UHGV virus genome: UHGV-1364187
Direction: 5' to 3' (one strand)
Length of the DNA: 64,000 nt
Origin: a virus
The position numbers and the translations under genes are program-made. The stretch's first letter is position 1; the number at the start of each line of letters is the position of its first letter. The notes under the pieces are model-generated. The model was given only the letters and a program-made list of their open reading frames with translations, made no database searches and had not been told where the DNA came from. Shown in pieces: positions 8,846 through 64,000 of this stretch.

Positions 8846-8889
8846 AAAGATTAGTATACTAAAATGTATACTAATCTTTATTTTTTTTA
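8846..8889. terminator. strong hairpin terminator
   Basis: 14-bp perfect stem aaagattagtatac/gtatactaatcttt, followed by tttttttt on the plus strand. It lies directly after the minus-strand stop at 8887. Confidence 0.6.
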
Positions 8890-9624: not shown

Positions 9625-9706
9625 AAAAATATCCCCCTCATAAAATAAATTAGAGTACATAATTACTCTTTATTTTCTAGTTAGAAGTAATTATGTACTC
9701 ATGTTT

Positions 9707-24220: not shown

Positions 24221-24301
24221 GTTTCTTCTCCTCCTTGAATGTTTAATATATGATAGATATAAGAAAAAGTTCATTATATCTATCATATATATAATATATA
24301 A

Positions 24302-38351: not shown

Positions 38352-38363
38352 GAGGAAACAGAA

Positions 38364-45026: not shown

Positions 45027-45050
45027 TATTAAAAAGGGAGAGTGGTATTT

Positions 45051-46109
45051 ATGGCAGCAGTTAGAGTTGCAGCAAAAATCAAACAATTAAACGATGCATC
45101 CTTCTTCTTAATGGATGCAAAAGATATTGAAACTAAAGGTGGAACCGACCTACAAACATTCCTTGATGATTTATCTGGTGGGGCAGTTGAAGACATTGAA
45201 GAACTCAAAACTTTAGTTGGTAAAAAAGCGTATACAGATAATACAGTTCCAGATAGTCCTGTTGATGTTCCTTCAACAGGTATGGTAAAAGATGTAGAAG
45301 ATATTCAAGCTACGATTGGTGTTGATGCTGTTATTGATGATAGTGACCCAGATAATCCTGTAGAAACTTCACCAGCAACAGGTATCAAAAAGGATATCGC
45401 TGATCTTAAGAAAGCTATGGATACTAATGTTTGTGATGTAGACAAAATTCTTTATACTCAAGCAGATTTTCCTACTATTGCAACAGTAAAAGATGCTTTA
45501 GATCAATTATTTGAAGATCTCTATTACTTAGCTCCAGAAATCACATCATTTACTACTACACCAACTTCATTAACATTCGAAATTGGTTCTACAGTAAATA
45601 CTATCGATTTCACATGGGCACTTAATAAAGAAGTAACTAGTGTTACATTGACAGATTGTACAATTGCTGATCCAGCAGATACAACTGCTCAATATGCTAC
45701 TCCATTAACAACAGATAAAGAATTCGTTCTTACTGTTACTGATGGAAAAGAAACAGCTACTGCTAAGAAGAATGTTAAATTCTTACCATATGTATATTAT
45801 GGAAAAGCTGCAGCTCCAGATGGGGTTACAACAAACTATGATGATACATTCGTATTAGGTTTACCACAAAAAGCATTTAAATCAAATGCTAAAGGTAGTT
45901 ATGATATGACTTTAGGTGTAGATGAATTTGGATATTTAGCACTTCCAGCTTCATTTGGAACACCAAAAGTTAAAATCGGTGGATTTGATACAGAATTAGA
46001 TTTAGCTGCTACATTTGATCATACAAATGCTAGTGGATATCAACAATCTTATAATGTATTCAAAACAGGTAATGCTAACTTAGGTGCAATCTCTATGGTT
46101 GTCGAATAA
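45051..46109 (+). CDS. tail fibre/receptor-binding protein, tandem paralogue B
   Basis: Paralogue of 43905-45026. ATG at 45051 after AAGGGAG. Confidence 0.6.
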   Translation: MAAVRVAAKIKQLNDASFFLMDAKDIETKGGTDLQTFLDDLSGGAVEDIEELKTLVGKKAYTDNTVPDSPVDVPSTGMVKDVEDIQATIGVDAVIDDSDPDNPVETSPATGIKKDIADLKKAMDTNVCDVDKILYTQADFPTIATVKDALDQLFEDLYYLAPEITSFTTTPTSLTFEIGSTVNTIDFTWALNKEVTSVTLTDCTIADPADTTAQYATPLTTDKEFVLTVTDGKETATAKKNVKFLPYVYYGKAAAPDGVTTNYDDTFVLGLPQKAFKSNAKGSYDMTLGVDEFGYLALPASFGTPKVKIGGFDTELDLAATFDHTNASGYQQSYNVFKTGNANLGAISMVVE

Positions 46110-46354: not shown

Positions 46355-46386
46355 AAGGTGTTTTATTTTAGAAAGGAGTGAATACA

Positions 46387-47748
46387 ATGAGTAAATATGT
46401 GACAGAAGAAGTTCTTAAACAGGCAGCCGAAGATATTATCAGATCATTAGGTAGTCATATTGTAGAATATGAACCTTATACTGACGATGAGATTGCCGAA
46501 CTTTATAATCTTACTCCAGAAGAAGTTCAACAATTAAGCGAATTAATCAGAGATGATATTATTTCTCAATATAAACTTTGGTCTAGTAAAAAAGTTGATA
46601 GCTCTATTACAGATGCTAAATTGGAATGTAATGAATATACTGATAAAATGCTTTCTAATATCAGTAGCATTTCTTTAGAATGGTGTGAAACTTCTCTTCC
46701 AGTTACTGGAGAAACAAACAAGATTTATATATTTCCAAAAACCACTGATGGTAATACTGTAAACACTCTAAATATTTGGAGTACTACTAGTTCTGATTGG
46801 GTCACATTTGGAAATTTAGATATAGATTTTTCTCAATTTTATACTAAAAGTGAAATTGATACTAAACTTGATTTAAAAGCTAATAAAACTGAAGTACTAT
46901 CTCAAGATGGAGTTATTGTAGATAAATCATTAGCAACTACTGCTAATGTATTAAGTGCTACTACTACTGTAGAAGAATTGGATAAAAAGATAGATAAAAC
47001 AAGTATTGTTACGAGTATTACTGATTCTAGTACAGATGAACAGATTTCTACAGCTAAAGCTATTTATAATAGTATTATTAATGGAAAATTAGGATGCTTA
47101 AAATACAATACTGAGTATATGAATTCAGATACATTAAATATTTTTCTACCTAATGCCGGAATGTATAAAATTGGTTCTCCAACTAAAGGTGTCCCAGAGA
47201 ATAATTTACAAGATTATACATTATTTAATATTCCTTGGATGCTTACTGAAAATAATAATTTTGCTACACCTACATTAGAATATGGGTGTCAACTACTATT
47301 TTCACCAAGATTTATAAATAGTTTCTGGTATAGAGTTGTATGGGGATATGATAAAGACACATATACATATACTGAAGGTGATTATTCAGTATTTACAAAA
47401 TGGAGAGTAGTTAATACAACTTCTATAGAAAATATAAATCCAACAACATTAACATATGATACATCTGTTGTTTCAGAAGGAACTATTTCATATGAAGTTA
47501 GAAATGGTATTTGCTACATTTCATTCATATCTGTAAAACTTGCGACTACTGGAACTAATCAAATTATTTCATCAACACTATTACCAAAGCCAAGTCAAGG
47601 ATTTGCAACATTTTCTTTATTTAATGATAGTGTTGATATAAGAGTTGGAACGTTCTTTATTGATGGTTCTGGATATTCTAAAGTACACTGCTTTACTGCA
47701 AATACTGGTGTATGGCAAACATTTTCTTATCCAGTAGCAGAATCTTAA
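46387..47748 (+). CDS. tail fibre protein (family with conserved C-terminus ...TFSYPVAES)
   Basis: FYTKSEIDTKLDLKANKTEV motif. The C-terminus is identical to that of 49550-50839. Confidence 0.6.
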   Translation: MSKYVTEEVLKQAAEDIIRSLGSHIVEYEPYTDDEIAELYNLTPEEVQQLSELIRDDIISQYKLWSSKKVDSSITDAKLECNEYTDKMLSNISSISLEWCETSLPVTGETNKIYIFPKTTDGNTVNTLNIWSTTSSDWVTFGNLDIDFSQFYTKSEIDTKLDLKANKTEVLSQDGVIVDKSLATTANVLSATTTVEELDKKIDKTSIVTSITDSSTDEQISTAKAIYNSIINGKLGCLKYNTEYMNSDTLNIFLPNAGMYKIGSPTKGVPENNLQDYTLFNIPWMLTENNNFATPTLEYGCQLLFSPRFINSFWYRVVWGYDKDTYTYTEGDYSVFTKWRVVNTTSIENINPTTLTYDTSVVSEGTISYEVRNGICYISFISVKLATTGTNQIISSTLLPKPSQGFATFSLFNDSVDIRVGTFFIDGSGYSKVHCFTANTGVWQTFSYPVAES

Positions 47749-47749
47749 A

Positions 47750-47792
47750 ATACTATGATAACCTTAATCGGTTATCATAGTATTATTTTTTA
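47750..47792 (+). terminator. rho-independent terminator
   Basis: 14-bp stem atactatgataacc/ggttatcatagtat, then tattttttt. Confidence 0.8.
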
Positions 47793-47924
47793 TATACTAA
47801 AATACATCTATAGCGTCAAATGTATTATTTTAACACTATAATAAATATAATCAAACTATACTATTACAATTAGTACAGTTTACAATCACATTATATTAAA
47901 TTAAAAAGAAAGGATGTGTATTTT

Positions 47925-49520
47925 ATGGATATCACATTACGTAAAGAAAAAGGTATTACTACGGATAATCTTAAAAAGATTGTTCAGATAGGTATCAATT
48001 TCGGTGAAAAACTTAATACCATAGAAGCAGCATGTATTGAACAATATGATCCAGATACACCTTATGTTGCTGGTAATCACTGTTATTATGACAATTATTT
48101 ACAGGAAGCATTAGCAACAACAAAAGGTGAATGGAATTCATCCAGATGGAAAAAAGTAGGTGATGATCTAAATCCTATTACTAAAGATGATATTGATGCT
48201 TGGCTTGGATTATCACAAGATGAAATTAATACATTATCAAGTATTATCTTAGATAGTGAAGTACGACTAGATAAAACTTATAGTTCTTCAAAAATTTATA
48301 CAGATATACAACAGTGTTTATCAGATTCAAAAACATTTACTTTAGCACAATTTGCTAAAGCAAATAAAGCTTCATACAAAGTGGCTAATTCTTTAGATGA
48401 AATGACAGAAACTAATATCTTATATTTATATAGTGCTAGTGGAGATACTAATTATGATATTTATGCTTTAATAGACGGAACAGCTACACCTATTGGAAGT
48501 ACAACTATCGATCTTAGTAATTATTATACTAAAGATGAAGTAGATGCGGATTTCTTAAAGAAAACTGATGCTGCTTCTACATATGCTACTATTGATAATG
48601 TAAATGGTAAAGCTGATAAAACAGATATTGTTACTCCTAGTAAAACATCAACCACATCACAAATGGCAAATGCTAAAGATGTATTTGATATGCTTTCTGG
48701 AAAACAACCAATTTTAAAACACAATTTATGGGATGAAGATGCTCTTAATAGAACAGATAGAACAGAAGTTGCGTACGGGTATATAGAAACTACAACAGCT
48801 GTATCAATAGGTATAACAGACGCTACAGATTTCTTCCATGTAATATATTTACCTTGGGATATGTCATATCCTACAGAAATTTTAATTACATGCTCTGGAC
48901 AAAGTAGAATGTATTTAAGAAGTTGTTTTAATGGAACATGGAGTAATCCTAAAGAAATATTAACACGGAATAGAGTTATAGAATTAGGAGATTTAGGAAA
49001 CGGTACACGAGGATTAATATATACATGGAAAGGTGATAATGACGAAGGATATTTTGGTTTAGATTTAACAGGTGCAGATGGAACAACAAAAAGAGTTCAA
49101 TTTAATAAAGAAGCATCTAATAATATAATAGAGATGTTTAATCACGACGGTACAAATTGGAATTATCTAGGTAGATGTGCAATGACAAAAGTTAATGATA
49201 TTCCATATACACAATTGCAACTTAGTGGAACTTCTATATTTAGTGAAGGTGTAATTACATACTGTGTAAATAATGGATGGTGTAATTTTACATTTTCTGC
49301 TTTTACAAGTGCTTTAGGTTCATCTGTTGGATTATCAAGTTCTGCATTTCCTGCACCAGTTAATGGACTTATAACAGTACCATTAATAGATGATCTTAGT
49401 GGTACAGTAGTAGGAATGTTCTATATAGATAGTCAGTATGGTTCTATACCTAGATGTCATGTATATAAAGCAGGATTACGTGCATTTGCATCATTGTCAT
49501 ATAAAGTAGAAGAACCTTAA
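47925..49520 (+). CDS. tail fibre protein (paralogue)
   Basis: YYTKDEVDADFLKKTD motif. The upstream leader is duplicated with the one before 49550-50839. Confidence 0.6.
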   Translation: MDITLRKEKGITTDNLKKIVQIGINFGEKLNTIEAACIEQYDPDTPYVAGNHCYYDNYLQEALATTKGEWNSSRWKKVGDDLNPITKDDIDAWLGLSQDEINTLSSIILDSEVRLDKTYSSSKIYTDIQQCLSDSKTFTLAQFAKANKASYKVANSLDEMTETNILYLYSASGDTNYDIYALIDGTATPIGSTTIDLSNYYTKDEVDADFLKKTDAASTYATIDNVNGKADKTDIVTPSKTSTTSQMANAKDVFDMLSGKQPILKHNLWDEDALNRTDRTEVAYGYIETTTAVSIGITDATDFFHVIYLPWDMSYPTEILITCSGQSRMYLRSCFNGTWSNPKEILTRNRVIELGDLGNGTRGLIYTWKGDNDEGYFGLDLTGADGTTKRVQFNKEASNNIIEMFNHDGTNWNYLGRCAMTKVNDIPYTQLQLSGTSIFSEGVITYCVNNGWCNFTFSAFTSALGSSVGLSSSAFPAPVNGLITVPLIDDLSGTVVGMFYIDSQYGSIPRCHVYKAGLRAFASLSYKVEEP

Positions 49521-49549
49521 AATAAATAAAAAGAAAGGATGTGTTTTAG

Positions 49550-50839
49550 ATGAGTCAAAAGTTTGACATATTAACTAAAGAAGAAGTTCAATATTTATGT
49601 GGATTAATACGTAAAGTTGTAACTGTTTCTGAAGCAATTGATGATATTAATCTTAGATCAGATGGGACTTTCTCATCTGTTAAGATTGATAACTTAATCA
49701 AATTAGCAAAACAAGAATGTAATGAATACTCTGATCAGGTATGTAGTGCATTAATTAAACTTACATGTAAGAAAACTACAGTACAACCTACATTAGATAA
49801 TTCAGAAACAAATGTAATCTATTTATATTCTGCAGATGGAAATGCTCCATTTGAACAATGGTTAAAGCTTTCAGATACAGAATTAGTAGATATGGGTAGT
49901 ACTACTATTACATTAGATGGATATTATACTATTGATCAATGTGATGGTAAATTTGCATTAAAAACAGATTTAGCAGATGTAGTTACTGCTGTTAATGAAA
50001 TTAAAAATACTATTGGTACTGATACTTTAAATACTACTGATAAAACATTAATTGGTGGTATTAATGAAGTAAAAGATTCAATAGATACTAAGATTGATAA
50101 ATCAAAAATTATTACTACTATTGATAGTTCTAGTACCGATGAACAAGTACCTAGTGCTAAAGTAACATATGATGAAATAAATTGTGGTAAAGAAATAAAC
50201 GATGATATTATTTCAAAATACGGAACAGAAATTTATAAATACCCAATAGGAAGATGGTATATTCCTACTGTTGAAATATATATGAAAATGACAGATTTGC
50301 CATCAAATTCAAAAACTGCATGTACAATAGATATATCATCAATAACACCACATAGAAATATAACAAGTCCTTGGTGTTACAGAAATATAGTTTTAAGATA
50401 TATTTGCACAAATTCTGGATATATGTATATAAGATCTTTTAATAGTGGTTCTACTGGTGGCGAAATAAATTCAGATAGTGGATGGGAAAGAGTTTGTACT
50501 ACAAAAGTTGATGATGTAAGCCCTACAAAGATTAATATTAATACGGCATATATATCAAATCCTATGTGTTATTATGAAGTAAAAAATGGTATATGTTATA
50601 TAAATATGATATCAGGCAATTATATAATACCTTCACAATTAGATGGAGTTACATTAGCTTCAGGATTGCCAAAACCATCGTTAAGTCAAATTACACACAC
50701 ATACAATCTTTGGAGCAATATAAATGCACAAGTAATATTATTTGTTACTGCTGAAAAACAATTGATTCTTCATGCAAATGCTGCAGCCAATGGTGGATGT
50801 GTATTTACTACATTCTCATATCCAGTAGCAGAATCTTAA
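49550..50839 (+). CDS. tail fibre protein (paralogue)
   Basis: YYTIDQCDGKFALKTDLADV motif. C-terminus TFSYPVAES. Confidence 0.6.
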   Translation: MSQKFDILTKEEVQYLCGLIRKVVTVSEAIDDINLRSDGTFSSVKIDNLIKLAKQECNEYSDQVCSALIKLTCKKTTVQPTLDNSETNVIYLYSADGNAPFEQWLKLSDTELVDMGSTTITLDGYYTIDQCDGKFALKTDLADVVTAVNEIKNTIGTDTLNTTDKTLIGGINEVKDSIDTKIDKSKIITTIDSSSTDEQVPSAKVTYDEINCGKEINDDIISKYGTEIYKYPIGRWYIPTVEIYMKMTDLPSNSKTACTIDISSITPHRNITSPWCYRNIVLRYICTNSGYMYIRSFNSGSTGGEINSDSGWERVCTTKVDDVSPTKININTAYISNPMCYYEVKNGICYINMISGNYIIPSQLDGVTLASGLPKPSLSQITHTYNLWSNINAQVILFVTAEKQLILHANAAANGGCVFTTFSYPVAES

Positions 50840-50859: not shown

Positions 50860-50896
50860 AATAAGAGTGAGAATAATCCCACTCTTATTTTTATTT
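50860..50896 (+). terminator. terminator hairpin
   Basis: aataagagtg/cactcttatt, then tttttattt. Confidence 0.55.
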
Positions 50897-50920
50897 CATA
50901 TACAAAGGAGTTGGTCTTTC

Positions 50921-52549
50921 ATGACTAAAAATTACAAAGTTTCAAAGAACATTATAAGCAATAAACTAAAACTCACTAATGTTGTACATAATAGTTTGTC
51001 TAAATTAAATATTTATGCACAAACAAACAGAAAAACATTACATAATGATTTTGAAAAGAATATTGTATTATCTGTAAATGATAAAGAATACAATATTCAA
51101 CTTCCAGTCCCTATGTATGGTATTGAATTATTTAGGGACTATGTAGATATAATTAATAAAAAATTATATAAAAAGGTATCTAAAAGAATTATTAATGGAT
51201 CAGAAAATATCTTTTCAATTCAGGTATGCAGTACTGTTGTAAAAATTTGTATCAAACTAGATCCAACTACAAATTATATTTCAAGAAATGAAGAAAGGAC
51301 TATAATGTATAGTAAAATCAACGGAGTAAAAGAAGTATCTGTTTATAATAGAGATTTCAATATTACTTTATCAAAAGATGTTCTTTCTGAATATACAGAG
51401 AATGGAGTAAAATCTTTCTTAAAAGAAAATAATCTTGTTATATACTACATTAATAAAGTTTATAAAGAATATGATTTAGATATAGAAGATATAAATTTAG
51501 TAGATGGAGAAAACGAAATATCTATTAACGGTACAGAAGAAAATGGAATTGAAATCGAATATGTTTCAACTGTAGAGCCAGAAGAAAAAATATTTAAACC
51601 TAGATTTTGTAGCGTATTAGATTTCGTAGCCACACCAGCAGATGCTAAGGGTGGTATGAGATATTGTCAAGAGACATTATATAATGAAGATATTGAAGTA
51701 TTTAATTCTCTTAAAATAACAGATGATCCATCTATTCTTGTTGTAGACTGTTATTACAACGAAGAGACAGATGAGATGTATCTATTAAAAGATAAAGATT
51801 GGTATGTAACAAATTATGCAAGTAAATATATTGATAATGGAATTAATATAGACAAAATTAAGTTACATACATTCTTCTATAATGGAGGATTAGGAAATTC
51901 AGAATATATAAGACAAGTAATTGGTAGAGATAAATTTAAAGAAAAATATGATAAGATTCTTGACGATGTAATTTATATCGCAGATAATCTAAGAGACAAA
52001 GATGGAAATAAATATATCAAAGATATTATCTTATTTAACGAATTAGATGCTTTATTCCATGATGATGAACTTACAGACTATGTTATTGATTCTGTTAATA
52101 AGATAAAAGCATTAGGATATAATTCAGGTGTATCAAATGCAAGCCCTCTTAATTTCAAGAACAATGATGAAAGATTGAAAGAAGCTTCATCTAAATTCTA
52201 TATCAACTGGTATATTAAAATTCAAGATAATAATCATGTAGTTGATATTGATAAAGTTGTAGAAAATGTAAGAAATTCAAGAGAAATAAAGATTCTTGAA
52301 GAATTTACGAAGAAATATAATAAGAAAGTGTTTATTAGTGAAACAGGAGTATTAGATGATTGGGAATATCTTCATTGCCCAACTAGATATGGATTTACAA
52401 ATGTAACACCTTCATATGGAGAGACTGAAAATATTTACTTAAACATGATGTTTAAGGCATTAAACTTAGATTATATCGAAGGTGTATGCTATTGGTGGTA
52501 TATGGGTTATAATAAACTCATTAATCCAATTCAAGAATATACTAAATAA
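50921..52549 (+). CDS. glycoside-hydrolase-like protein (TIM-barrel, NE...E type), putative virion-associated polysaccharide depolymerase
   Basis: FNELDA (acid/base NE) and VFISETG (nucleophile E) lie about 130 aa apart, as in clan GH-A enzymes. ATG at 50921 after AAAGGAG. The ORF opens at 50867, inside the terminator. Confidence 0.5.
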   Translation: MTKNYKVSKNIISNKLKLTNVVHNSLSKLNIYAQTNRKTLHNDFEKNIVLSVNDKEYNIQLPVPMYGIELFRDYVDIINKKLYKKVSKRIINGSENIFSIQVCSTVVKICIKLDPTTNYISRNEERTIMYSKINGVKEVSVYNRDFNITLSKDVLSEYTENGVKSFLKENNLVIYYINKVYKEYDLDIEDINLVDGENEISINGTEENGIEIEYVSTVEPEEKIFKPRFCSVLDFVATPADAKGGMRYCQETLYNEDIEVFNSLKITDDPSILVVDCYYNEETDEMYLLKDKDWYVTNYASKYIDNGINIDKIKLHTFFYNGGLGNSEYIRQVIGRDKFKEKYDKILDDVIYIADNLRDKDGNKYIKDIILFNELDALFHDDELTDYVIDSVNKIKALGYNSGVSNASPLNFKNNDERLKEASSKFYINWYIKIQDNNHVVDIDKVVENVRNSREIKILEEFTKKYNKKVFISETGVLDDWEYLHCPTRYGFTNVTPSYGETENIYLNMMFKALNLDYIEGVCYWWYMGYNKLINPIQEYTK

Positions 52550-52564: not shown

Positions 52565-53521
52565 ATGACTAAATATGATAATTTAGTTGCAGCGTGCTTA
52601 TACTTGGTCTAATTTATGGTCCACATGGAGAATGTAGCCGTAGAGAACGAACCTGACGATATAGATAAGCAGATTAAAATGATTAAAGATCATAATATAA
52701 ATAAAGCACAAATTGTGCTTACTTTAGGACTAGATGATGGCGAAACAAGTAAACATAAAGGATTGTATATCGCTGGTCCTAAAAATTATGACACATCAGA
52801 TTATTTATTTAAAAGATTGGAAGAAGAAAATATAAGCATATAATTATTAAAAATCCATTTTAATTATACTGGAGTGAAGGATTGTGATAAATGGATTTCT
52901 AATACATTAGGTTCTTTAAAGGAATTTTCTAATTACTACCACGATAAAGTAATTGAAATTGCTGAAAGATATAAAGGTAGAATAGAAAATATATGCCCTT
53001 GGAATGAAACAGGATGGGGTAGTAGAGGAAATTATATCCCATTTATTAAAGATACAATTGATGATTTACATAAATTAGGATATAAAGTCACAATGAGTAC
53101 GATGGGCTTTACTGAACTTGTAGAAATTGATAAAGAAATATTAGATAAACTTGATTTCTTTAGTTGTAATAATTATCCTCACGGTTCAGTAAAAGGTAAA
53201 AAAATGTACACCAAAAGATACGGCTCAAGCATTTAGAAATTATGAGTTTGATCCATTAACAGTATATAATTGGTGTAAAAAGAATTATCCTAACAAAAAA
53301 GTATGGATAACAGAAAGTGGAACTTTTGATTCTAGTAAGCATGTGTTATTACCAGCTCTTTCTGATCCAAATATTGCAGATGGAAATAAAGAGGCTAATG
53401 GTAAAATACAAGCAAATTATTTAGATGCATTATTTACACTATATGTAAACAAATTTGAAAGAATTTGTTGGTGGTGGAAAATGGAATGTGAAGAAACTAA
53501 AAAATTATTAGGAGTAAATTA
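52565..53521 (+). pseudogene. decayed paralogue of the GH-like gene (N-terminal truncation, in-frame TAA, +1 frameshift at an A7 tract)
   Basis: Pieces 52565-52612, 52616-52843, 52874-53236 and 53222-53521 together read ICPWNETGW...VWITESG, parallel to the NE...ISETG of the intact copy. A TAA at 52841-52843 and a frame change at the A7 run (53198-53204) interrupt it. Confidence 0.55.
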
Positions 53522-53522
53522 A

Positions 53523-54170
53523 AATGACTACAATTAATAGTGATGATTTAGATTTTATCAAAGGAATGACAGTATCAAATATTTTCGATGGAGTAACTGA
53601 GCCTTTTACTTCTGTAACTATCAAAGATGATTTATATACTAAACTTTTTACAATTCAAACTCATAATAATGACCATAATGATATTGATCCTTGAGAACAA
53701 TTATTTGTTGTAGATTTTATCAATTATAGATACAAAGCAAATGGGTATGAATTAAATAAAATACCATATACTGGTATTGAAGATTTTAAGATAATTATAA
53801 ATATTAATACAAATCCAAATAATTTCCATTGTACTTATGCTTGTACAAATAAAAAAAACCATTTATTGATATTATAGCTTTAAGAACAGATGATAATAAA
53901 GTAGATTTCTATGGACTTAATAGAGTAAATGGTACTAGATTATTAAGTAGATTAAGTATTGGAAATATTTCATGTATTGATTTTTATAGAGTAGACTATA
54001 TAAAAGAACATGAATGGACTGATACGATAACAAGTGAAAAGAAAAATGATAAAGAAAGATATATTAAATGCTACTATCCTAACGTCGCTTATATGAGCGG
54101 TATTACAAATAAGATAACAGCTTTAGAAAATAGGGTAAAAGAACTAGAAGAAAAATTAACAGTTTCATAA
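53523..54170 (+). pseudogene. disrupted gene of about 216 aa (in-frame TGA at 53692-53694, frameshift at the A8 tract 53851-53858)
   Basis: Coding-like sequence with an RBS and ATG at 53523. Inserting one A at the A8 tract restores a continuous frame to the TAA at 54168. Confidence 0.45.
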
Positions 54171-54201
54171 GAAAATAAATAATACGAAGGAGTTGTTTAT
54201 A

Positions 54202-55563
54202 ATGGAAAATATTTTAAATGTAAAAGATTTTGGTGCATCTGGAAATGGTGTTGATAATGACACAGAAGCTATTAAAGAAGCATTAAAAACTATGGAAGAA
54301 AACGGTGATGATAAAATATATTTTCCTAAAGGAGATTATATTGTAGATTATGATGTAGAATTTAAAAACTTTGTTGGTGAAGGTACTATTACATTTAATG
54401 GTATGGTAATTGAACCTTTTAAATCTCATTCACAAGGAAAGAAAATTAAAATTAAAGATCTTCATGATGAAGTTAATATGGCTATGCAAGTTCCAAATGA
54501 AGTTGGATGTATAGAAAAGATTGATAAAAGAAAAAGAAATTGTGGAGCATGGCAATTAGATGATTTTTCATTCAAATCTTATAAATATACATCAAGACAA
54601 CGTGTTAATACTTGGGGCGTTGTTAGAGTGTGTGATATTAATAAAGTCCCAGATAAAGCTACATTTAAAATTGGACATATGCATACTCTTGGATATATCA
54701 AATCATTACAAAAATGGGTTATGCTTGGTACAAGTAGAGTAGCTGGAGGATATTGGGCTAGAGGGAACAATTATGTAGGAAACTTAGATATTAAATTTGA
54801 TAAATTTGGTAATGGACTTGTAGAATACGATAAAGAAACTAGAGGCGAATTAGGACTTCATTTCTGGGGTGATGTAATTCATGTAAAAGAAAAATGTCAA
54901 TATAAGTGGGATGATATTCAGAATGTAGTATGTGTATATGATATTTCTGTTACAAGTTCTACTGGAAGTGTAGAAGGTGCATGGTTTGGTTATTCAGGCG
55001 GAGATGCTAAACATGATGATTCTTCAAGAAATTATCTTGATGATGAAAACTCTATTCTAGAAATGTGTAGTGGTAGAGCAAAATTCTTACATAATTATCC
55101 TGTTAGACTATATTCTAATACATTAGATTATCCATCTAGTATGGAATATTGTAGCCAAGAATTAATCGATAATATTATTGGAGAAACTGTACATAATAAA
55201 CAAGTAGTGAATTATAGTGTAGACTTTAATACACTTATTATAGAAGGAGATTATAATGTTTGTGCAACAAATTGTGTGCATTCACCAAGATCAACTGGAT
55301 ATAATATTGGTGTATTAAATGTAAAAACAATCGATGGATATATAATTCAAGAATTTACAGAAAATAAAAATAATGAAAAGATTACTATTTTCAAAAGAAT
55401 GTATATCCAATATCATGGATGGACATCTTGGTGTACAATTCCTAAGATTTATGAAAGACCAAAGATGGGAAGTAAATGTACAGATTTAGATAGTTGTATT
55501 GAGCTTACTAATAAAATCGCTCAAGGTTTAGCAGATTTATATATTTTACAATTCGGTGAATAA
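54202..55563 (+). CDS. right-handed beta-helix (pectate-lyase-fold) tailspike/depolymerase
   Basis: The N-terminus VKDFGASGNGVDNDTEAIKEAL is the canonical pectate-lyase-3/tailspike signature. Confidence 0.65.
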   Translation: MENILNVKDFGASGNGVDNDTEAIKEALKTMEENGDDKIYFPKGDYIVDYDVEFKNFVGEGTITFNGMVIEPFKSHSQGKKIKIKDLHDEVNMAMQVPNEVGCIEKIDKRKRNCGAWQLDDFSFKSYKYTSRQRVNTWGVVRVCDINKVPDKATFKIGHMHTLGYIKSLQKWVMLGTSRVAGGYWARGNNYVGNLDIKFDKFGNGLVEYDKETRGELGLHFWGDVIHVKEKCQYKWDDIQNVVCVYDISVTSSTGSVEGAWFGYSGGDAKHDDSSRNYLDDENSILEMCSGRAKFLHNYPVRLYSNTLDYPSSMEYCSQELIDNIIGETVHNKQVVNYSVDFNTLIIEGDYNVCATNCVHSPRSTGYNIGVLNVKTIDGYIIQEFTENKNNEKITIFKRMYIQYHGWTSWCTIPKIYERPKMGSKCTDLDSCIELTNKIAQGLADLYILQFGE

Positions 55564-56629: not shown

Positions 56630-57760
56630 ATGGAACTAAATATCAAAAATTTCATAAGAGATGTACTTAAAAAGTACGACACCAGAGTAGATACAAAGTT
56701 ATCAAATTTAAATATATCTACTGATTATACAAGTTTATCAAATAAACCTACATTAAATGGTGTAGAAATATCTGGTAATAAATCATCATCAGATTACAAT
56801 TTAATTGGAGAAGATCATGACTCTTCAACAACAGCTCATAGTGATATTAGATCATTAATATCCACTAATAAAACTACTATAGATTCACACACATCAAATA
56901 CAGATCTACATGTTTCTAGTTCAGATAGAAATTTGCTTACAGCATTAAACCATAATAAAGGTACATTTGAATCAGAGACATTATTACGTGCAGCATATCC
57001 AACAGCATCTAGTGGAGATTATTGCGTTTGTTATAATGGAACTAACTATACTGTTTGGACATACAGTACAGATTGGGTTGATACTGGACAATTAGGAAAT
57101 GTAACATCAGTAAATAATCTTACAGGAGATATTACATTAGATTCTAATAATGTAAATTACGAAACTGGTATTACATTAAAAACAAAGATAGATCAAAATC
57201 AATCCGATATACAGACATCTATAGGAGATTTATCAGCATTACAAACTGTAGATAAAACTTCTATTGTTAATGCAATTAACGAGGTTTTTCTAGAAGTCGA
57301 TAATGGGAAGACTTTATTGGCTAGTGCCATTACCGACAAAGGAGTTACTACTAGCAAAGATGATGAATTTAATACTATGCTAGGAAATCTATATAGTATT
57401 AAATCTGGAAATAATAATAAAGCAATTGTCACTTCTATATTAAGTGAGAATTCTAATAATTATACGCAAATCATGACAAAAGAAAAATACACAGTATATG
57501 CAGAAACTATATATAATGTAGACTCTGTATATACTGATAATGGAAATGGTAGTATAACTATAGACAACGATTATACAACAGTATCATGTTTAGGGTATAT
57601 TACTGTTCTAGATGAAACAAATAAACCAGTTTTTATGAAACCAAATGACAGTAATATGTATTACATGTTATCGTATATGATAGTTATAGATAGTTCTGGA
57701 AACCAAACTACTGGATTATCTGGATTAAAAGTATTGCCTCGACCATGTGTAATATTATAG
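56630..57760 (+). CDS. tail fibre-like protein
   Basis: 376-aa ORF in the fibre array. Confidence 0.5.
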   Translation: MELNIKNFIRDVLKKYDTRVDTKLSNLNISTDYTSLSNKPTLNGVEISGNKSSSDYNLIGEDHDSSTTAHSDIRSLISTNKTTIDSHTSNTDLHVSSSDRNLLTALNHNKGTFESETLLRAAYPTASSGDYCVCYNGTNYTVWTYSTDWVDTGQLGNVTSVNNLTGDITLDSNNVNYETGITLKTKIDQNQSDIQTSIGDLSALQTVDKTSIVNAINEVFLEVDNGKTLLASAITDKGVTTSKDDEFNTMLGNLYSIKSGNNNKAIVTSILSENSNNYTQIMTKEKYTVYAETIYNVDSVYTDNGNGSITIDNDYTTVSCLGYITVLDETNKPVFMKPNDSNMYYMLSYMIVIDSSGNQTTGLSGLKVLPRPCVIL

Positions 57761-57771
57761 GAGAAATAACA

Positions 57772-59028
57772 ATGAACTTAGTTACTAAAATTAATGACAT
57801 AACAGAAATATCTAAAATTAATAAAAATACATTTATAAAAGAATTACAAAATAAAGGATTTGATATTGATGATAATGCAACATACAAAGATATATCTAAT
57901 TATATAAACAAAATAGATATTACTAATAATAATATTCATCTAAATGGTATTTCAACATCATTTATAAATTCTGAATGGGTAGAGCTTAGTTCTCTACCAT
58001 CAGATTTTATAAAACATAAATCTGTAGTATACAATGGAGATATTCATATATTAGGGGGAGATGGAACTAAAAATTCCACTCTTCATTATAAATATGATGG
58101 AACTTCATGGACAAAAGTATCAACATTACCATTTGTATTTATAGATGGTCAGGCTGTAGTGTATAGAGATTGTATACATATAATAGGATCTTCATACAAT
58201 TCGACAGTAAGACCATATCATTATAGATATAACGGAACTTCATGGACAAAATTAACAAATTCACCAGCATCATACCCATATGGAGGATATGCAGTTAATC
58301 ATAACGATAAAATTCATTCTATTGGTGGAACTTATACTTATAACGATAGACATTATACATGGAACGGATCAAAATGGACATCTATAAAATCTGTACCTTT
58401 TGATACAAGATATGGTTGTGGTGTAAGTTATAATAATCACATATATGCAATTGGGAGTAGTATATCATCTAGTAAAAACAGATGGTCTAGATGGTCAGAT
58501 GAAACTTCTAGTTGGGATGATATAAAAACATTATCGGCTTCTTATACAAATGCATATGCTGTTGTATATAATAATAGTCTACATTTACTTGGTGGTTCAG
58601 AAACGAAAAGACATTATTCATTTAATGGATCTAAATGGACTTTAGAAACTACACATGAAAATTTATTATATTATGGTGCATGTGTTATTTGGAATGAACA
58701 ATTTCATATATTAGGTGGAACTGGTACAGAAAATAAACACTATGTTTTATCTAATATAACAGTAAATAATACAATAATAGTAAAAAATACTTCAACTATT
58801 TATCATGAATCTACAGAACCTACAATAACAAAGATAAATGATGAATATGATTGTATTACGTATGTTAAAGATGAATATTTAACCATTAAAGATAATGATA
58901 AAATAACATTTATTCATTCTAATAAAGATAATAAGTGTTATTTACCAAAAGGAAGTAAGATAAACGGTAATATACAAGATATATATGGTGTAATTGATTA
59001 CCCAAATTATCCATGTATTATCGAGTAA
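57772..59028 (+). CDS. Kelch-repeat beta-propeller protein (putative receptor-binding protein)
   Basis: At least 6 repeats of the form hhhYNN-x-IHhhGG....HYKYDGTSWTKVSTLPF. N- and C-terminal domains are shared with 59073-61118. Confidence 0.6.
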   Translation: MNLVTKINDITEISKINKNTFIKELQNKGFDIDDNATYKDISNYINKIDITNNNIHLNGISTSFINSEWVELSSLPSDFIKHKSVVYNGDIHILGGDGTKNSTLHYKYDGTSWTKVSTLPFVFIDGQAVVYRDCIHIIGSSYNSTVRPYHYRYNGTSWTKLTNSPASYPYGGYAVNHNDKIHSIGGTYTYNDRHYTWNGSKWTSIKSVPFDTRYGCGVSYNNHIYAIGSSISSSKNRWSRWSDETSSWDDIKTLSASYTNAYAVVYNNSLHLLGGSETKRHYSFNGSKWTLETTHENLLYYGACVIWNEQFHILGGTGTENKHYVLSNITVNNTIIVKNTSTIYHESTEPTITKINDEYDCITYVKDEYLTIKDNDKITFIHSNKDNKCYLPKGSKINGNIQDIYGVIDYPNYPCIIE

Positions 59029-59072
59029 CATAAGTTAATATTTTTTATAAACAGGAATTGGGGGTGATAAAT

Positions 59073-61118
59073 ATGTCTTTAGTTAATCAAATAAACGACA
59101 TTACAGATAGTATAAAACTATATAAGGATGCATTTATAAAAGAATTAAAAAATAAGAATATTACAATTGATTATGATTCTGGTTTTCAAGAGATATCAGA
59201 AAAAATACAAGATATTTCATCATCAGTAACTGAATTTTCAACATGTGCATATAATGAAGATTACATAAATGGGGTATGGAAAAATGTATCAACATTACCA
59301 GATAGTATATATAAGATGAAAGCTGAAGTTATTGATAATAAAATAGAATGTTTGAATGCTAATTATAGACTAGAATATGATGGATCTTCATGGACTAAAT
59401 TTACTGATATTCCATACTCATGTGGAATTGATATGTGTGTTATAAATTATAATAATGAACTTCATGTATTAGGAGGCGGTACTGGATCTAATAGAACAAA
59501 ACACTATAAATACGATGGTGATTTGTGGACCACAGTGTCAACTATACCATATCAATTTTATAGAGGAATATGTATTGTGTATAATAATGAGATACATCTG
59601 ATAGGTGGATATTCTTCTAATAATTATCATTATAAATATGATGGAAATTCTTGGACAAAAGTGGCAGTGTTACCATTCGCTTCAGTGTACGGTACAGCTG
59701 TAGTGTATAATAATGAAATACATGTTATTTCTGCAAATTCAACAAATGCTTCAAAAGGGAATCATTATAAATATGATGGGACATCATGGAGTTTAGTTAC
59801 TACATTTGAACCTGTAAAAACAAATAATGATAGATCTTGTTATTCAATAGCAGTTGTTTATAATAATAAGATACATGTATTCAATGCGTACGATTCATAT
59901 TATAATACATATGATGGTACATCATGGACTTCTATTGGAAATTACCCATATGGCACATATAGTGCAATTGTTATATATAATAATAAAATACATTCATTGG
60001 GAGGCAGTAATACTAATTTAACACATGTAAAATTGGAATTTTCTAATAATACAATACCTTCAAATATATCTAGTACAATTGTAGATAATATATCAAGTGA
60101 TGATGATATATTTGATAGTATATATTATAAAGGTAAAATATATTCATTTGCTAATGAATATAGATATGAATATGATGGTACATCATGGACTAAAATATCA
60201 GATATACCTAACTTATATGCAAATATTATGAGGTGTGCGGTAGCAATATATGATAATAAAATTCATATATTGGGTGGCGGTTATGCTGAAGATAGAGCTG
60301 GTCATTATTCATATGATGGTACATCATGGACTAGTGTATCATCTTTACCAATAAGATCAGTATACGCTAATGCTATATCGTATAATGGAGAACTTCATCT
60401 TATTGGTGGGGATGGATACACTACAATACATTATAAGTGGGACGGAACTTCATGGACACAACTTACAAATTTACCGTTCGATTCCAAATCAGGAACATGT
60501 GTTATATATAATAATGAAATTCATATAGTAACAAGTGTTGATAGAGGATATGATGTGCACCATTATAAATATGATGGAACGACATGGACTCTTATTCACA
60601 CATTTACTTCAGACGAAATTAATAGACCAGAATACACAAAAATGATATTATATGATAATAAATTGCACTTATTTAGTGAGTTTAATAATAGATATTATAT
60701 ATTTGACGGGACATCGTGGACATATGTATCTAATTATACATACGATGGATATGCTTCCAGTGGTATAGTTATATATAATGATAAAATTAATACTATAGGT
60801 GGATATTCTAAAATGTATAGATATATTATAGATTATAATGAACTTTCTATAAATTGTACAATGATAATTCCTAGTACATCAACAATATACCACGAAACTA
60901 CATCTCCTACTATAACTAAAATAAATGATGATTATAATCTTATATCTTTTATAAAAGGTGAATATTTAACTATTGCTAATAACAACAAATTAATATATGT
61001 GTGTAAGAATGATACTACTAATAAGTGTTATTTACCAAAAGGAACAAAAATTAATGGAACAGAAATAACAACATACGGAGTAGTGGATTATCCTACAACA
61101 GCATGTATTATAGAATAA
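59073..61118 (+). CDS. Kelch-repeat beta-propeller protein, long paralogue
   Basis: About 12 YDGTSWT repeats. Both ends are homologous to 57772-59028. Confidence 0.6.
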   Translation: MSLVNQINDITDSIKLYKDAFIKELKNKNITIDYDSGFQEISEKIQDISSSVTEFSTCAYNEDYINGVWKNVSTLPDSIYKMKAEVIDNKIECLNANYRLEYDGSSWTKFTDIPYSCGIDMCVINYNNELHVLGGGTGSNRTKHYKYDGDLWTTVSTIPYQFYRGICIVYNNEIHLIGGYSSNNYHYKYDGNSWTKVAVLPFASVYGTAVVYNNEIHVISANSTNASKGNHYKYDGTSWSLVTTFEPVKTNNDRSCYSIAVVYNNKIHVFNAYDSYYNTYDGTSWTSIGNYPYGTYSAIVIYNNKIHSLGGSNTNLTHVKLEFSNNTIPSNISSTIVDNISSDDDIFDSIYYKGKIYSFANEYRYEYDGTSWTKISDIPNLYANIMRCAVAIYDNKIHILGGGYAEDRAGHYSYDGTSWTSVSSLPIRSVYANAISYNGELHLIGGDGYTTIHYKWDGTSWTQLTNLPFDSKSGTCVIYNNEIHIVTSVDRGYDVHHYKYDGTTWTLIHTFTSDEINRPEYTKMILYDNKLHLFSEFNNRYYIFDGTSWTYVSNYTYDGYASSGIVIYNDKINTIGGYSKMYRYIIDYNELSINCTMIIPSTSTIYHETTSPTITKINDDYNLISFIKGEYLTIANNNKLIYVCKNDTTNKCYLPKGTKINGTEITTYGVVDYPTTACIIE

Positions 61119-61136
61119 AAAAAGGAGGAATATTTT

Positions 61137-61484
61137 ATGACAACGACAGACTATAAGTACAATAATCAAGAAGTATCATATGAAATCTTAAGTAATGGAT
61201 ATGAAATTTATTTAAGTGGAAGATTATGGATATCACAAAAAGAACCATATATTCCAAATCCATCATTATCATATGAAGAAAATTGCTTAAATCAGATTAA
61301 AGAAACCTGTACAGCAGTTTCTAAAGATGAAACAGAATTAGAACAACTTAAAACAACTAATATGCAATTAGAATCACAAATTTCAGAATTAGACAAAACA
61401 TGTAGTATGCTATTATTACAAATAGCACAATATCATAATGAAGAAATGTCTTCTTCAACAACAGATACTACTACAACAAAATAA
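61137..61484 (+). CDS. coiled-coil hypothetical protein
   Basis: 115-aa ORF. Confidence 0.45.
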   Translation: MTTTDYKYNNQEVSYEILSNGYEIYLSGRLWISQKEPYIPNPSLSYEENCLNQIKETCTAVSKDETELEQLKTTNMQLESQISELDKTCSMLLLQIAQYHNEEMSSSTTDTTTTK

Positions 61485-61514
61485 TACAATTATAAATTAA
61501 AGGAGTTGTTAATC

Positions 61515-61676
61515 ATGATTTCATTTTACAATCAAATTAAAAGATATTATTTACAAGGACGATATACAGAAAATGATTTAGACACATTCGTAAAAGCTGG
61601 TATGATAACGGAGAGTGAAAATAATGAAATTATCAAAGCAAAAGTTGAGATTGAGTCTAATAATTCTACTAACTAA
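61515..61676 (+). CDS. XkdX-family small protein (53 aa, not in the ORF track)
   Basis: IKRYYLQGRYTENDLDTFVKAGMITESE matches the XkdX pattern (KRYYD.GLWT...V..GKIT..EY..I). Confidence 0.55.
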   Translation: MISFYNQIKRYYLQGRYTENDLDTFVKAGMITESENNEIIKAKVEIESNNSTN

Positions 61677-61722
61677 TATTAACTTTTATATAAATAATAT
61701 TTTTGAAAGGATGGTGAAAAGA

Positions 61723-61896
61723 ATGTGGTATCCTGTTATTAGAAGATATTATTTACAAGGAATGTATACAGATGCAAATTTAATCGTATTTGTTACTGCT
61801 GGTATGATTACAGAGCAACAGATGAACGATTTAATTGCTGAAAAAGAAGCTCTTGAAAAAGAGCAAGACAGCACTTCTACAGAAGATGGAGAATAA
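61723..61896 (+). CDS. XkdX-family small protein, second copy
   Basis: MWYPVIRRYYLQGMYTDANLIVFVTAGMITEQQ. The ORF opens at 61615. Confidence 0.55.
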   Translation: MWYPVIRRYYLQGMYTDANLIVFVTAGMITEQQMNDLIAEKEALEKEQDSTSTEDGE

Positions 61897-61903
61897 TAAG
61901 ATG

Positions 61904-61949
61904 AAACCCATAGTGATAAAAATGTCACTATGGGTTTTTACATTTTAAT
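61904..61949 (+). terminator. rho-independent terminator
   Basis: 13-bp perfect stem aaacccatagtga/tcactatgggttt, then ttttacatttt. Confidence 0.7.
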
Positions 61950-61977
61950 AATACTTTATAAAAAGGAGGAGTTTATC

Positions 61978-62427
61978 ATGAATACTGGTGATATAATCTT
62001 AGTAAAAAATAATAAGTTAATTAGTAAGATTATTAAATGGTGGACTAAAAGTGAATATTCACATGTAGCATTAGCAGTGGATGATTTACATATGTATGAA
62101 ACAAATTATGATACTAATTCACATATAAAGATTATAGATTTTCCAACTAATATGTATGACATATATAGACTTAAAGATACATCAAAATTAGATACAGAGA
62201 AACTCAATAAGTTTATGAAAGAACATCTAAAAAATAAATATGATTTAGGTGAAATCTTTAAAATTGTATTTAAAATAAACACACCAGATGATGATGGTAA
62301 ATATATATGTTCTATGTTGGTCAGAGAAGCTTTCTTAGATCAGGGAATAGATTTAACTCCTGGAATTGAAATTCCAACTCCAGAAGATTTAAGTCATAGT
62401 GAGCTATTATATAAAGTAGAAGAATAA
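61978..62427 (+). CDS. YiiX/YaeF-like permuted papain-fold (C92) peptidase, putative cell-wall hydrolase or lysis protein
   Basis: GDIILVKNN..ISKIIKWWTKSEYSHVALAV, with a later Cys in YICSMLV. ATG at 61978 after AAAGGAGG. Confidence 0.55.
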   Translation: MNTGDIILVKNNKLISKIIKWWTKSEYSHVALAVDDLHMYETNYDTNSHIKIIDFPTNMYDIYRLKDTSKLDTEKLNKFMKEHLKNKYDLGEIFKIVFKINTPDDDGKYICSMLVREAFLDQGIDLTPGIEIPTPEDLSHSELLYKVEE

Positions 62428-62430
62428 TTA

Positions 62431-62462
62431 GTAAGTGTGCAGTTAAAATACTGCACACTTAC
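62431..62462 (+). terminator. hairpin
   Basis: 13-bp perfect stem gtaagtgtgcagt/actgcacacttac. Confidence 0.45.
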
Positions 62463-62493
62463 ATTATAATAAAATAGAAAGGAGGTAATATGA

Positions 62494-63354
62494 ATGAATT
62501 TAAGTAGTATTACTGATGTAAAATGGAATGAAAAAGATATACAAAAATTATTATATTGTGGTAATACATTATGGGAAAGAAAAACAGAAAATGTAAAATA
62601 CACAGAGTATAATACAGATAGACTTGATACTGATATTGAACTTAAATATTATAGTGCTGTAGTGTATAATGATCAAATACATTTAATAGGAAAAAATTCA
62701 TATGTAACACAACATACAATATTTGATGGAACTAGTTGGAGCTATGGTACTAATTTTAATTATGGACCTGGTGTTGCTGCAGTGTATAACGGTAAGATTC
62801 ATAATATGAATGGATATGGGTGGTATAGTTATGATGGATCTTCATGGTCTAGTGAAGGAAGTGTACCATATCCATGTAGTCAAGCTGCAATTGGAGTTTA
62901 TGATAATGAGATCCATATAATGGGTAGTATAACTTCTGAATATGGCAAGAAACATTATAAATATGATGGATCATCTTGGTCAGAGGACACATATTGGCTA
63001 CCAGGACAAAATACTGGTGGAGGAAATATAGTTAAATATAAAGGTAAGATATATTATGGAAATATGGAATGGGACGGAACACGCATTACTGTATTAGGCG
63101 ACCATTTAATTAGATCATCATGTTATAATGATATAATATACAATGGATATTTGTATATATTTGCTGATGATTTAGCCAGTGGAACTATAGGTCTATTTAA
63201 TGCTATATTTAGATACGATGGTTCCAATTTAGAATTTATAGGTAGAACACCATATAGTATGCAGAAAGCATTAACTGTATTATATAATAATAAAATTCAT
63301 ATTATTGGTAAGAATGATGTACTAGCAAGTTCTCATTACATGTTAAATATTTAA
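62494..63354 (+). CDS. Kelch-repeat beta-propeller protein, short paralogue
   Basis: Repeats FDGTSWSYGTNF, YDGSSWSSEGSVPY and YKYDGSSWSED. Confidence 0.55.
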   Translation: MNLSSITDVKWNEKDIQKLLYCGNTLWERKTENVKYTEYNTDRLDTDIELKYYSAVVYNDQIHLIGKNSYVTQHTIFDGTSWSYGTNFNYGPGVAAVYNGKIHNMNGYGWYSYDGSSWSSEGSVPYPCSQAAIGVYDNEIHIMGSITSEYGKKHYKYDGSSWSEDTYWLPGQNTGGGNIVKYKGKIYYGNMEWDGTRITVLGDHLIRSSCYNDIIYNGYLYIFADDLASGTIGLFNAIFRYDGSNLEFIGRTPYSMQKALTVLYNNKIHIIGKNDVLASSHYMLNI

Positions 63355-63369
63355 GGAGGAATATAAATT

Positions 63370-64000
63370 ATGAATAATTCAGATTTTATTAAAATGATGG
63401 TAGAATATAATAAAGATTGTAAATCAACTTTTAAATCTGTTTCTATTGCACAAGCTATAGAAGAATCTGGTAGCGGAACATCAAATTTATATGTGTTAGC
63501 TAATGCTTCATATGGTATTAAAGCGACATCAACATGGTCAGGTAAAGTATATTCAACTGCAACTAAACAAGTATATAGTTCTTATGATGAAGCTAAAAAA
63601 GTTGGAGGAACTTTATATAGAGCTTATAATTATATAAAAGACTCTGTAATAGATCATGATAAATTCTTACAAGCTAGTAGATATACTCCAGTAAGAAATG
63701 CTAAATCTTATCAAGAAGCATGTTTACAATTAAGATTATGTGGATATTGTCCAGATGATGGATATGAAACAAGACTTATGAAAATTATAACTAAATATAA
63801 TCTTACTCAATACGATGAACCATTAGAATTTCCATTTAAAGTTAAAGTTGTATATAGTGGAAAGGATGGTGTAAATGTAAGAAAAAATCCAGATTATAAA
63901 GATTCATCAATAGATAATGTCAATGGACCTATTATGTATGGCAGTCAATGTACTGTAGTAGAATTAGTTGGTGATTTTTATAAAACAAAGTCTGGTTTAT
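63370..64000 (+). CDS. endolysin: N-acetylglucosaminidase (LytD/FlgJ-type) with an SH3b-like domain, 3'-partial
   Basis: SIAQAIEESGSGTS matches the glucosaminidase AQAALESGWG motif. The later VKVVYSGKDGVNVRKNP is SH3b-like. RBS AAGGAGGA. The gene runs off the window. Confidence 0.65.
   Translation, partial: MNNSDFIKMMVEYNKDCKSTFKSVSIAQAIEESGSGTSNLYVLANASYGIKATSTWSGKVYSTATKQVYSSYDEAKKVGGTLYRAYNYIKDSVIDHDKFLQASRYTPVRNAKSYQEACLQLRLCGYCPDDGYETRLMKIITKYNLTQYDEPLEFPFKVKVVYSGKDGVNVRKNPDYKDSSIDNVNGPIMYGSQCTVVELVGDFYKTKSGL

Follow-up and report, generated by a model that had tools for sequence, protein, structure and literature searches.

The 64,000-nucleotide stretch of UHGV virus genome UHGV-1364187 analysed here (the window) comes from a 256,505-bp contig of a gut metagenome, and it carries three genes for Kelch-repeat proteins, which we call A, B and C. 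All three open reading frames (ORFs) are present on the + strand, as listed in an earlier note on this DNA: A at 57772..59028 (418 residues), B at 59073..61118 (681 residues, with an AlphaFold2 (AF2) model) and C at 62494..63354 (286 residues, likewise with an AF2 model). Each gene is preceded by a plausible ribosome-binding site at suitable spacing, GGAG before 57772 (A), GGGGGTGA before 59073 (B) and GGAGG before 62494 (C). Identical copies of A and C were also found on short contigs from several further gut samples.

Protein A starts with a helical segment, hereafter the hinge (residues 1–50, nt 57772–57921). It is followed by one six-bladed Kelch propeller (residues ∼66–335, nt 57967–58776), which is covered by six matches to a blade hidden Markov model (HMM) and by Kelch_6, and by one C-terminal β domain (residues 331–418, nt 58762–59025). 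Protein B has the same ends, and it contains two propellers in between. Its hinge (residues 1–50) is followed by propeller 1 (residues 67–323, nt 59271–60041), a short linker of low confidence (residues 324–330), propeller 2 (residues 331–589, nt 60063–60839) and the C-terminal β domain (residues 594–681, nt 60852–61115). Protein C contains neither the hinge nor the C-terminal domain of A and B; in the AF2 model it is composed of one disordered N-terminus (residues 1–31) and one six-bladed Kelch propeller (residues 35–285, nt 62596–63348), the latter also recognized by Foldseek.

The earlier note had described A, B and C as paralogous proteins made of tandem Kelch-type repeats, with the N- and C-terminal domains common to the two longer ones, and all of this was borne out. 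At the DNA level, repeat families of 11–13 copies with a spacing of 126–141 nt run across the three genes. We trained one blade HMM on metagenomic homologues only and ran it against the 227 window ORFs of at least 50 residues. It matched B with an E-value of 3.5e-96 (12 blades), A with 8.8e-62 (6 blades) and C with 1.4e-32 (four to five of the six blades being significant); among the 227 ORFs, nothing besides A, B and C scored below E 0.1. Counting of the motif xIHxxG ... HYKYDGTSWT gave six blades for A, six plus six for B and six for C. The repeats are far beyond chance.

Comparison of the 24 blades gave the consensus (V/I)VYNNxIH(I/L)xGG ... HYKYDGTSW(T/S). The Kelch superfamily is defined by tandem repeats of ∼44–56 residues with a hydrophobic run, Gly-Gly and spaced conserved Tyr and Trp; the blades show this signature, a hydrophobic run and GG followed by the spaced Tyr and Trp. 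They are 38–51 residues in length, and the closing sixth blades are shorter, 28–34 residues as cut. Not every blade keeps an intact GG pair; it has degenerated in B blades 1, 4 and 5, as well as in several C blades. In BLASTP comparisons, A is collinear with residues 320–681 of B (36% identity, E 1e-65), and residues 1–60 of the two proteins align as well; C shares 29% identity with B (E 2e-23). The C-terminal 88 residues of A and B are 60% identical, compared to 36% across the collinear alignment, which is mostly propeller.

Support from the Kelch families of Pfam is partial. A passes Kelch_6 with 32.1 bits (cut-off 25.3), and B passes both Kelch_2 (22.4 bits, cut-off 21.3) and NANM (53 bits, cut-off 45), whereas C, with 16.5 bits for Kelch_2, is below the cut-off of 21.3. 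Sequence search of the PDB gave E-values of 1e-3 to 1e-2 only, against KBTBD, KLHL and Keap1 proteins. Structure prediction returned the β-propeller that the earlier note had expected, two six-bladed propellers for B and one for C. An alignment of 31 sequences went into the AF2 model of B, whose mean predicted local distance difference test score (pLDDT) is 79.8. The model contains two N-terminal α-helices (residues 3–27 and 38–49), one disordered spacer, 24 β-strands at residues 67–323, 24 further β-strands at residues 331–589 and one eight-stranded C-terminal domain (residues 594–681). The model of C is a single six-bladed propeller with the disordered N-terminus in front (pLDDT 77.8, predicted template-modelling score (pTM) 0.80). 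Both models are confident over the propellers. In both propellers of B and in that of C, the DSSP strings of the models place the N-terminal strand in the sixth blade, which it completes.

In the Foldseek search of the PDB, six-bladed Kelch domains came first for B, led by NS1-BP (5yy8; target template-modelling (TM) score 0.74, root-mean-square deviation 3.1 Å over 274 columns); next came Keap1, proteins of the KLHL type and the SAKe6 designs, and tandem-propeller proteins, among them LRP6, were matched too. C matched the SAKe6 designed Kelch proteins, NS1-BP (TM 0.70), Keap1 and LZTR1. For A, we predict one Kelch propeller, since it matches the C-terminal half of B with 36% identity. At the level of these models and alignments, the Kelch-type β-propeller assignment of A, B and C is sound.

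The earlier note had also proposed repeat expansion or contraction as a route to host-range variation, and this proposal found no support. Active expansion or contraction of an array was rejected: Tandem Repeats Finder reported no array in the Kelch genes, the DNA repeat copies are 60–78% identical, and the blades come in multiples of six. Judged from the sequences, the repeats are old. The difference between A and B is one whole six-bladed propeller, not a variable repeat count. Blades 1–6 of B propeller 1 are closest, or tied closest, to the blades at the same positions of propeller 2, with normalized scores of 37, 48, 49, 45, 49 and 33, and both propellers have lost GG in blades 1, 4 and 5. 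Because the two propellers match blade for blade, the sequences indicate that B arose by duplication of one whole propeller in a single step.

Blade numbers in relatives follow the same rule. Among 129 family members, six blades were counted in 83 proteins, 11–12 in 24 and 18–19 in two; clustering in sixes is expected if only closed propellers are viable. P0001, a B orthologue of 55% identity, keeps the 12-blade layout together with both end domains. The feature that varies is gene content, since A is absent from the related contig L023 (ERZ27229639:k119_164262). L023 belongs to a second, related phage of the same sample and carries a 55%-identical B orthologue; there, the orthologue of the fibre gene 56630–57760 directly precedes the B orthologue with no A in between. 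The 115-residue gene that follows B is kept 3′ of the B orthologue in L023, and a ParA-like gene lies downstream, where the C92, C and glucosaminidase genes would be.

The fibre gene just mentioned (56630..57760, + strand, 376 residues) encodes a tail-fibre-like protein that matches the PHROG tail-fibre families phrog_26419, phrog_2137 and phrog_25848; its stop codon is 11 nt upstream of the A start. In this protein we found one 47-residue helical motif, VSDGKxLvAnAITdKGVxT...F..M..NI..I (the position after K being x, or t), in its canonical form at residues 214–260 (nt 57269–57409, NAINEVFLEVDNGKTLLASAITDKGVTTSKDDEFNTMLGNLYSIKSG; hinge HMM E 2.9e-18). It is followed by a C-terminal domain that differs from that of A and B. 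The narrow hinge HMM gave no match to A or B, and the broader profile–profile comparison matched both: the N-termini of A, B and P0001 align with the hinge motif over 46 columns (hhalign probability 93.9%, E 1.5e-7). The hairpin of helices with which A and B start is, on this profile evidence, a diverged version of the tail-fibre hinge motif. Of 15 copies of the motif, nine match the tail-fibre family phrog_26419. A profile search for hinge homologues returned seven short fragments only; the profile search of the PDB was marginal (‘Tail fiber protein’ 31he, E 0.13), and for the fibre protein 56630–57760 the PDB search gave no relative.

In many homologues, the hinge sits between the fibre shaft and the Kelch propeller. 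A and B thus appear to start exactly where the interchangeable tip starts, and their hinge probably serves for oligomerization or docking. The C-terminal 88-residue domain of A and B has no Pfam match, and one exhaustive HMMER search of 1.84 billion representative proteins retrieved only the clusters of A and of the B orthologue P0001; the domain thereby appears restricted to this lineage.

The Kelch genes lie at the end of a tail-fibre cluster and adjoin cell-wall hydrolases, in keeping with the earlier note, which had placed them in the tail-fibre and lysis region. Between ∼41.8 and 61 kb, the + strand genes all belong to families of fibre-like paralogues, with PHROG matches to tail fibres and tailspikes; A and B are the final large genes of this ∼20-kb same-strand run, which upstream of them also includes a protein with a pectate-lyase-like N-terminus (54193–55563). 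A and B are set 3′ of fibre- and tailspike-like genes and 5′ of two XkdX-like genes and one terminator-like hairpin. The order of fibre genes, Kelch genes, one gene of ∼116 residues and XkdX recurs in two other contigs, L032 and L022; in L032 it is a 116-residue gene that stands upstream of XkdX. Other large contigs have Kelch genes in the same fibre/XkdX pattern or beside lipases, tailspikes and wall hydrolases, and several Kelch paralogues are often found per genome.

Kelch propellers had been called uncommon as receptor-binding modules of phages, which overstated the case. Our search with B gave at least 814 significant proteins among the 8000 candidates scored, nearly all of them unnamed and metagenomic, and Kelch-like proteins have been reported in phages CBB, EL and phiR1-37 and in Erwinia phages. 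Near-identity DNA search of 57000–63900 against 50,697 phage records gave no match, no annotated close relative was found among these records, and tblastn of B against them gave a single weak match, a hypothetical protein of the Xanthomonas jumbo phage XbC2 (26% identity).

Several relatives carry the propeller on parts of known tail proteins. In L013, a 50.8-kb siphovirus-like viral contig from IMG/VR, the gene at 7119–9653 encodes an 844-residue protein with a Sipho_tail (Dit) N-terminus and Kelch propellers; it is directly 3′ of the tape-measure gene and 5′ of a Sipho_Gp37 gene. This protein is an ‘evolved Dit’ that bears the propeller family of A and B. Further fusions join BppU_N, Kelch and CBM_5_12 (P0092), Sipho_Gp37 and Kelch (P0110), LysM, fn3 and Kelch (P0028), a GDSL lipase and Kelch (P0068 and P0084), and long fibre shafts and Kelch (P0022, P0024, P0066 and P0116). 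Relatives of the A/B propeller are thus contained in siphophage baseplate proteins of the evolved Dit, BppU and Tal type, which have inserted or appended carbohydrate-binding modules (L013, P0092 and P0110). Different from these, A, B and C are free-standing proteins in a jumbo-phage fibre cluster, with no Dit, BppU or Tal domain.

The fusions to Dit/Sipho_tail, BppU_N, Sipho_Gp37 and fibre shafts support a tail-tip or adhesion role. In our preferred reading, to which we assign a probability of about 0.6, A and B are tail-fibre tips of the virion: the hinge docks or assembles the protein, the propellers bind a host ligand, probably a glycan, and the C-terminal domain caps or stabilizes the whole. 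Presence in the virion, ligand and adsorption role are what we infer for A and B, and on sequence grounds a receptor-binding role is plausible. A gut jumbo phage of ∼256 kb would make A and B as late structural proteins, most likely to form the distal host-binding tips of its multi-fibre tail apparatus. Their hinge would mediate oligomerization or dock onto a fibre or baseplate partner. One rigid propeller in A, or two in B, would offer loop surfaces to a ligand on the host surface, most likely a cell-wall or capsule glycan. The 88-residue β domain would cap the protein; analogous proteins suggest that it might act as a ‘tower’ or in assembly. B would have derived from an A-like form through duplication of one entire propeller, and C, the bare propeller of the same family, would be a further adhesin or a wall-binding accessory.

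A precedent for such an arrangement is the solved receptor-binding protein Gp45 of Staphylococcus phage phi11, in which helices form a stem, followed by a five-bladed propeller with a proposed affinity for N-acetylglucosamine (GlcNAc) and by a β tower (PMC4901313). Like phi11 Gp45, A and B have N-terminal helices, propeller and C-terminal all-β domain in that order, and in Gp45 the proposed ligand of the propeller ‘platform’ is a sugar of the wall, the GlcNAc that decorates teichoic acid (PMC4901313). Gp45 is a tail-tip protein, as A and B putatively are, and the phages have Gram-positive-type features. Different from A and B, the Gp45 propeller is five-bladed and not of Kelch type, and its stem is a long triple coiled coil. 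The Gp45 trimer and its baseplate position are experimental, whereas A and B are known from sequence and models.

By structure, the closest proteins in BFVD are those of jumbo phages: PhiPA3 gp360 (E 1.7e-21), PS119XW and the ‘Kelch-like’ protein of EL; the Noxifer ‘virion structural protein’ and Kelch-like and ‘structural’ proteins of CBB are further neighbours. Together with phiR1-37 and Erwinia Eneladusvirus, these jumbo-phage Kelch-like proteins (CBB_550, CBB_552 and CBB_554 in CBB) are the closest known; CBB infects Pectobacterium, phiR1-37 Yersinia, and EL, PhiPA3, PS119XW and Noxifer are Pseudomonas phages. CBB encodes three such proteins, of which mass spectrometry detected CBB_552 in virions (PMC5259590); Kelch-like proteins had been reported earlier in giant Pseudomonas and Yersinia phages (PMC5259590). 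Their function is described as not elucidated (PMC7760394). Like A, B and C, they are six-bladed Kelch propellers, single or tandem, with several copies per very large phage, and the single-propeller CBB proteins have a TM score of ∼0.7 in BFVD. Sequence similarity to them is almost nil, however, their hosts are Gram-negative, and the hinge and orphan C-terminal domain of A and B are unreported for them.

Several points weigh against A and B as tail-fibre tips. Neither protein has a fibre shaft or a known baseplate-attachment domain, and the usual ligands of Kelch domains in eukaryotes and poxviruses are proteins rather than glycans. C is devoid of both shared domains, has no PHROG match and is located in a lysis neighbourhood. 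The blade counts derive from DSSP strings and sequence motifs, the B model leaves it uncertain how its domains are oriented to one another (pTM 0.56), and its hinge and C-terminal domain have a pLDDT of only 55–76. Homology of the hinge depends on one profile alignment of 46 columns. Of the three Kelch-like proteins of CBB, one was detected in virions (PMC5259590).

Kelch being a classic protein-binding module, A, B and C might instead be non-structural proteins that act inside the cell, their propellers binding host or phage proteins for takeover or as a scaffold, comparable to poxvirus BTB-Kelch proteins. The best PDB matches are all substrate adaptors (Keap1, KLHL and NS1-BP), poxvirus Kelch proteins are among the BFVD matches, and the jumbo-phage proteins, whose function is not elucidated (PMC7760394), include two CBB members of three that were not found in virions (PMC5259590). 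Compared to Keap1, KLHL2/12/17/20, NS1-BP and BTB-Kelch proteins, with TM scores of 0.6–0.74 for the best PDB matches, fold and repeat signature agree; however, A, B and C are only 11–19% identical to eukaryotic and poxviral Kelch proteins, have no BTB/BACK domain and stand in a different biological setting, and the likeness is one of fold only. Pfam gave no BTB/BACK or other adaptor domain, the N-terminus being a 50-residue helical hairpin in A and B and disordered in C. The genes end a fibre operon, A and B start with a relative of a tail-fibre motif, and proteins of the propeller family occur as fusions with Dit, BppU_N, Sipho_Gp37 or fibre shafts, all of which make an intracellular adaptor improbable. 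We also regard as unlikely that the propellers are carbohydrate-active enzymes, virion-borne or not, of the NanM-like mutarotase, galactose-oxidase-like or glycosidase type, acting on host surface glycans. B exceeds the Pfam cut-off for NANM (53 vs 45 bits), a label that it shares with many relatives; the score is made up, however, of short single-blade matches at profile positions ∼287–332 of 350, the best stretch in B covering 293–329, and is not full-length. Membership in NanM (N-acetylneuraminate mutarotase, PF24996) was rejected, the matches covering single blades only in B and in its relatives. Pectate-lyase-like and weakly GH113-like proteins are encoded nearby, relatives adjoin GDSL lipases or are fused to them, and phage endosialidases use six-bladed propellers (PMC4901313); yet the structural matches are Kelch adaptors, not sialidases, NanM or galactose oxidase, and the proteins show no evident signal peptide.

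For C alone, an accessory role in the lysis cassette is possible, if doubtful: it would be a stand-alone wall-binding propeller that works with the C92 amidase, the glucosaminidase or both. C is flanked by the Peptidase_C92 and glucosaminidase genes, with a hairpin upstream and a gap of 16 nt to the latter gene, and it has neither of the two end domains found in A and B. Its closest full-length relative, P0122 (34% identity), however, precedes another Kelch gene and not a lysin, and no Kelch protein is known to us as the wall-binding subunit of an endolysin. Within the tail-fibre-tip reading of A and B, one more far-reaching version is tentative and has the odds against it. There, gut-phage adhesins of a large family not yet described would have the hinge as their universal joint, at which shafts end and swappable tips begin. 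A and B would be shaft-less tip cassettes, either docking by way of the hinge on the fibre 56630–57760 to give a branched, multivalent adhesin or forming a reservoir from which tips are swapped through recombination at the hinge, and phages of gut Firmicutes would have single or double Kelch propellers as a main glycan-binding receptor module.

Jumbo phages were known before to have Kelch-like propellers, one of them a virion component, and so were receptor-binding proteins that bear propellers; with fold, genomic setting and jumbo-phage occurrence on record the gain is incremental. If A and B are adhesins, Kelch propellers would be a frequent and nearly unannotated host-recognition module of gut phages, which would aid host prediction and the annotation of receptor-binding proteins in metagenomes. 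The rigid six-blade unit, single or doubled, and the conserved hinge would then offer handles for host-range engineering. The most notable parts are the hinge as a module boundary and the abundance of unannotated relatives.

Directly 3′ of B, the ORF at 61137..61484 (+) encodes a predicted coiled-coil protein of 115 residues, whose Pfam matches are weak and of coiled-coil type only. It is followed by the two tandem XkdX-like small genes (61515–61676, 53 residues, and 61723–61896, 57 residues; both +), which match Phage_XkdX and phrog_134 and are gene calls in L001. The two copies share 47% protein identity, and 76% DNA identity over 78 nt. This pair closes the fibre operon, and 3′ of it lies the terminator-like hairpin, a strong one, with a 16-bp stem and T-rich tail (61903..61938, +). 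The public gene call at 61978..62427 (+) encodes a Peptidase_C92 (NlpC-P60-like) protein of 149 residues, a candidate cell-wall amidase; it scores 28.2 bits with PF05708 (cut-off 27) and matches phrog_1128 with E 1.6e-32. Between this gene and C, one perfect 13-bp inverted repeat, GTAAGTGTGCAGT...ACTGCACACTTAC, spans 62431..62462 (unstranded). It has no T-run on the + strand and could therefore be, instead of a simple terminator, an element that works in both directions or affects RNA stability. The gene that follows C starts 16 nt 3′ of the C stop codon at 63371 (+) and runs past the window end (63371..64000 in the window); the L001 gene call gives 222 residues and a glucosaminidase match (PF01832, E 9.8e-18). 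The product is a candidate endolysin, and C is apparently co-transcribed with it.

Upstream of the Kelch genes, the fibre paralogues form tandem families. The proteins of 43905–45026 and 45042–46109 are 48% identical, and those of 46378–47748, 47916–49520 and 49550–50839 are fibre-like paralogues of 26–31% identity; the two families (43905–46109 and 46378–50839) suggest a large multi-fibre cluster. Two short ORFs at 52616–52843 and 52874–53236 resemble remnants of a glycoside-hydrolase-like gene akin to 50867–52549, which has a weak GH113 match. They are followed by ∼950 nt (53237–54192) with no ORF longer than 59 residues, possibly what is left of a gene in decay, or else a spacer with a regulatory function. 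The window gave no match in Rfam and tRNA scans. Matches to sigma-70-like promoters were not used, as 104 were found and 95 are expected by chance.

The predicted gene content of the window also fits a jumbo phage. Jumbo-phage-type genes encode a Dda-like helicase, both subunits of topoisomerase II, an NAD-dependent ligase and the exonuclease domain of a family-B polymerase; examples of such genes in positions 1–41000 of the window are 22442–24286 (−), 27051–28238 (−) and 35964–40727 (+). An RNA polymerase β-like fragment is also encoded in the window (Rpb2_6, E 3.4e-14), and the tubulin/FtsZ-like match is weak, with 23.3 bits below the cut-off of 33. A phage multisubunit RNA polymerase and tubulin, in a gut phage of 28% guanine plus cytosine, recall the nucleus-forming phiKZ-like phages. 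An SMC/RecN-like ATPase was also observed in positions 1–41000. About 5 kb past the window end, L001:15116–15964 (−) encodes a metallo-β-lactamase-fold protein with a match to the Pfam family Anti-Pycsar_Apyc1, a candidate cyclic-nucleotide-degrading anti-defence enzyme; near it are genes for a DnaB helicase, a SpoIIID-like regulator and a PA14-domain protein of 1061 residues.

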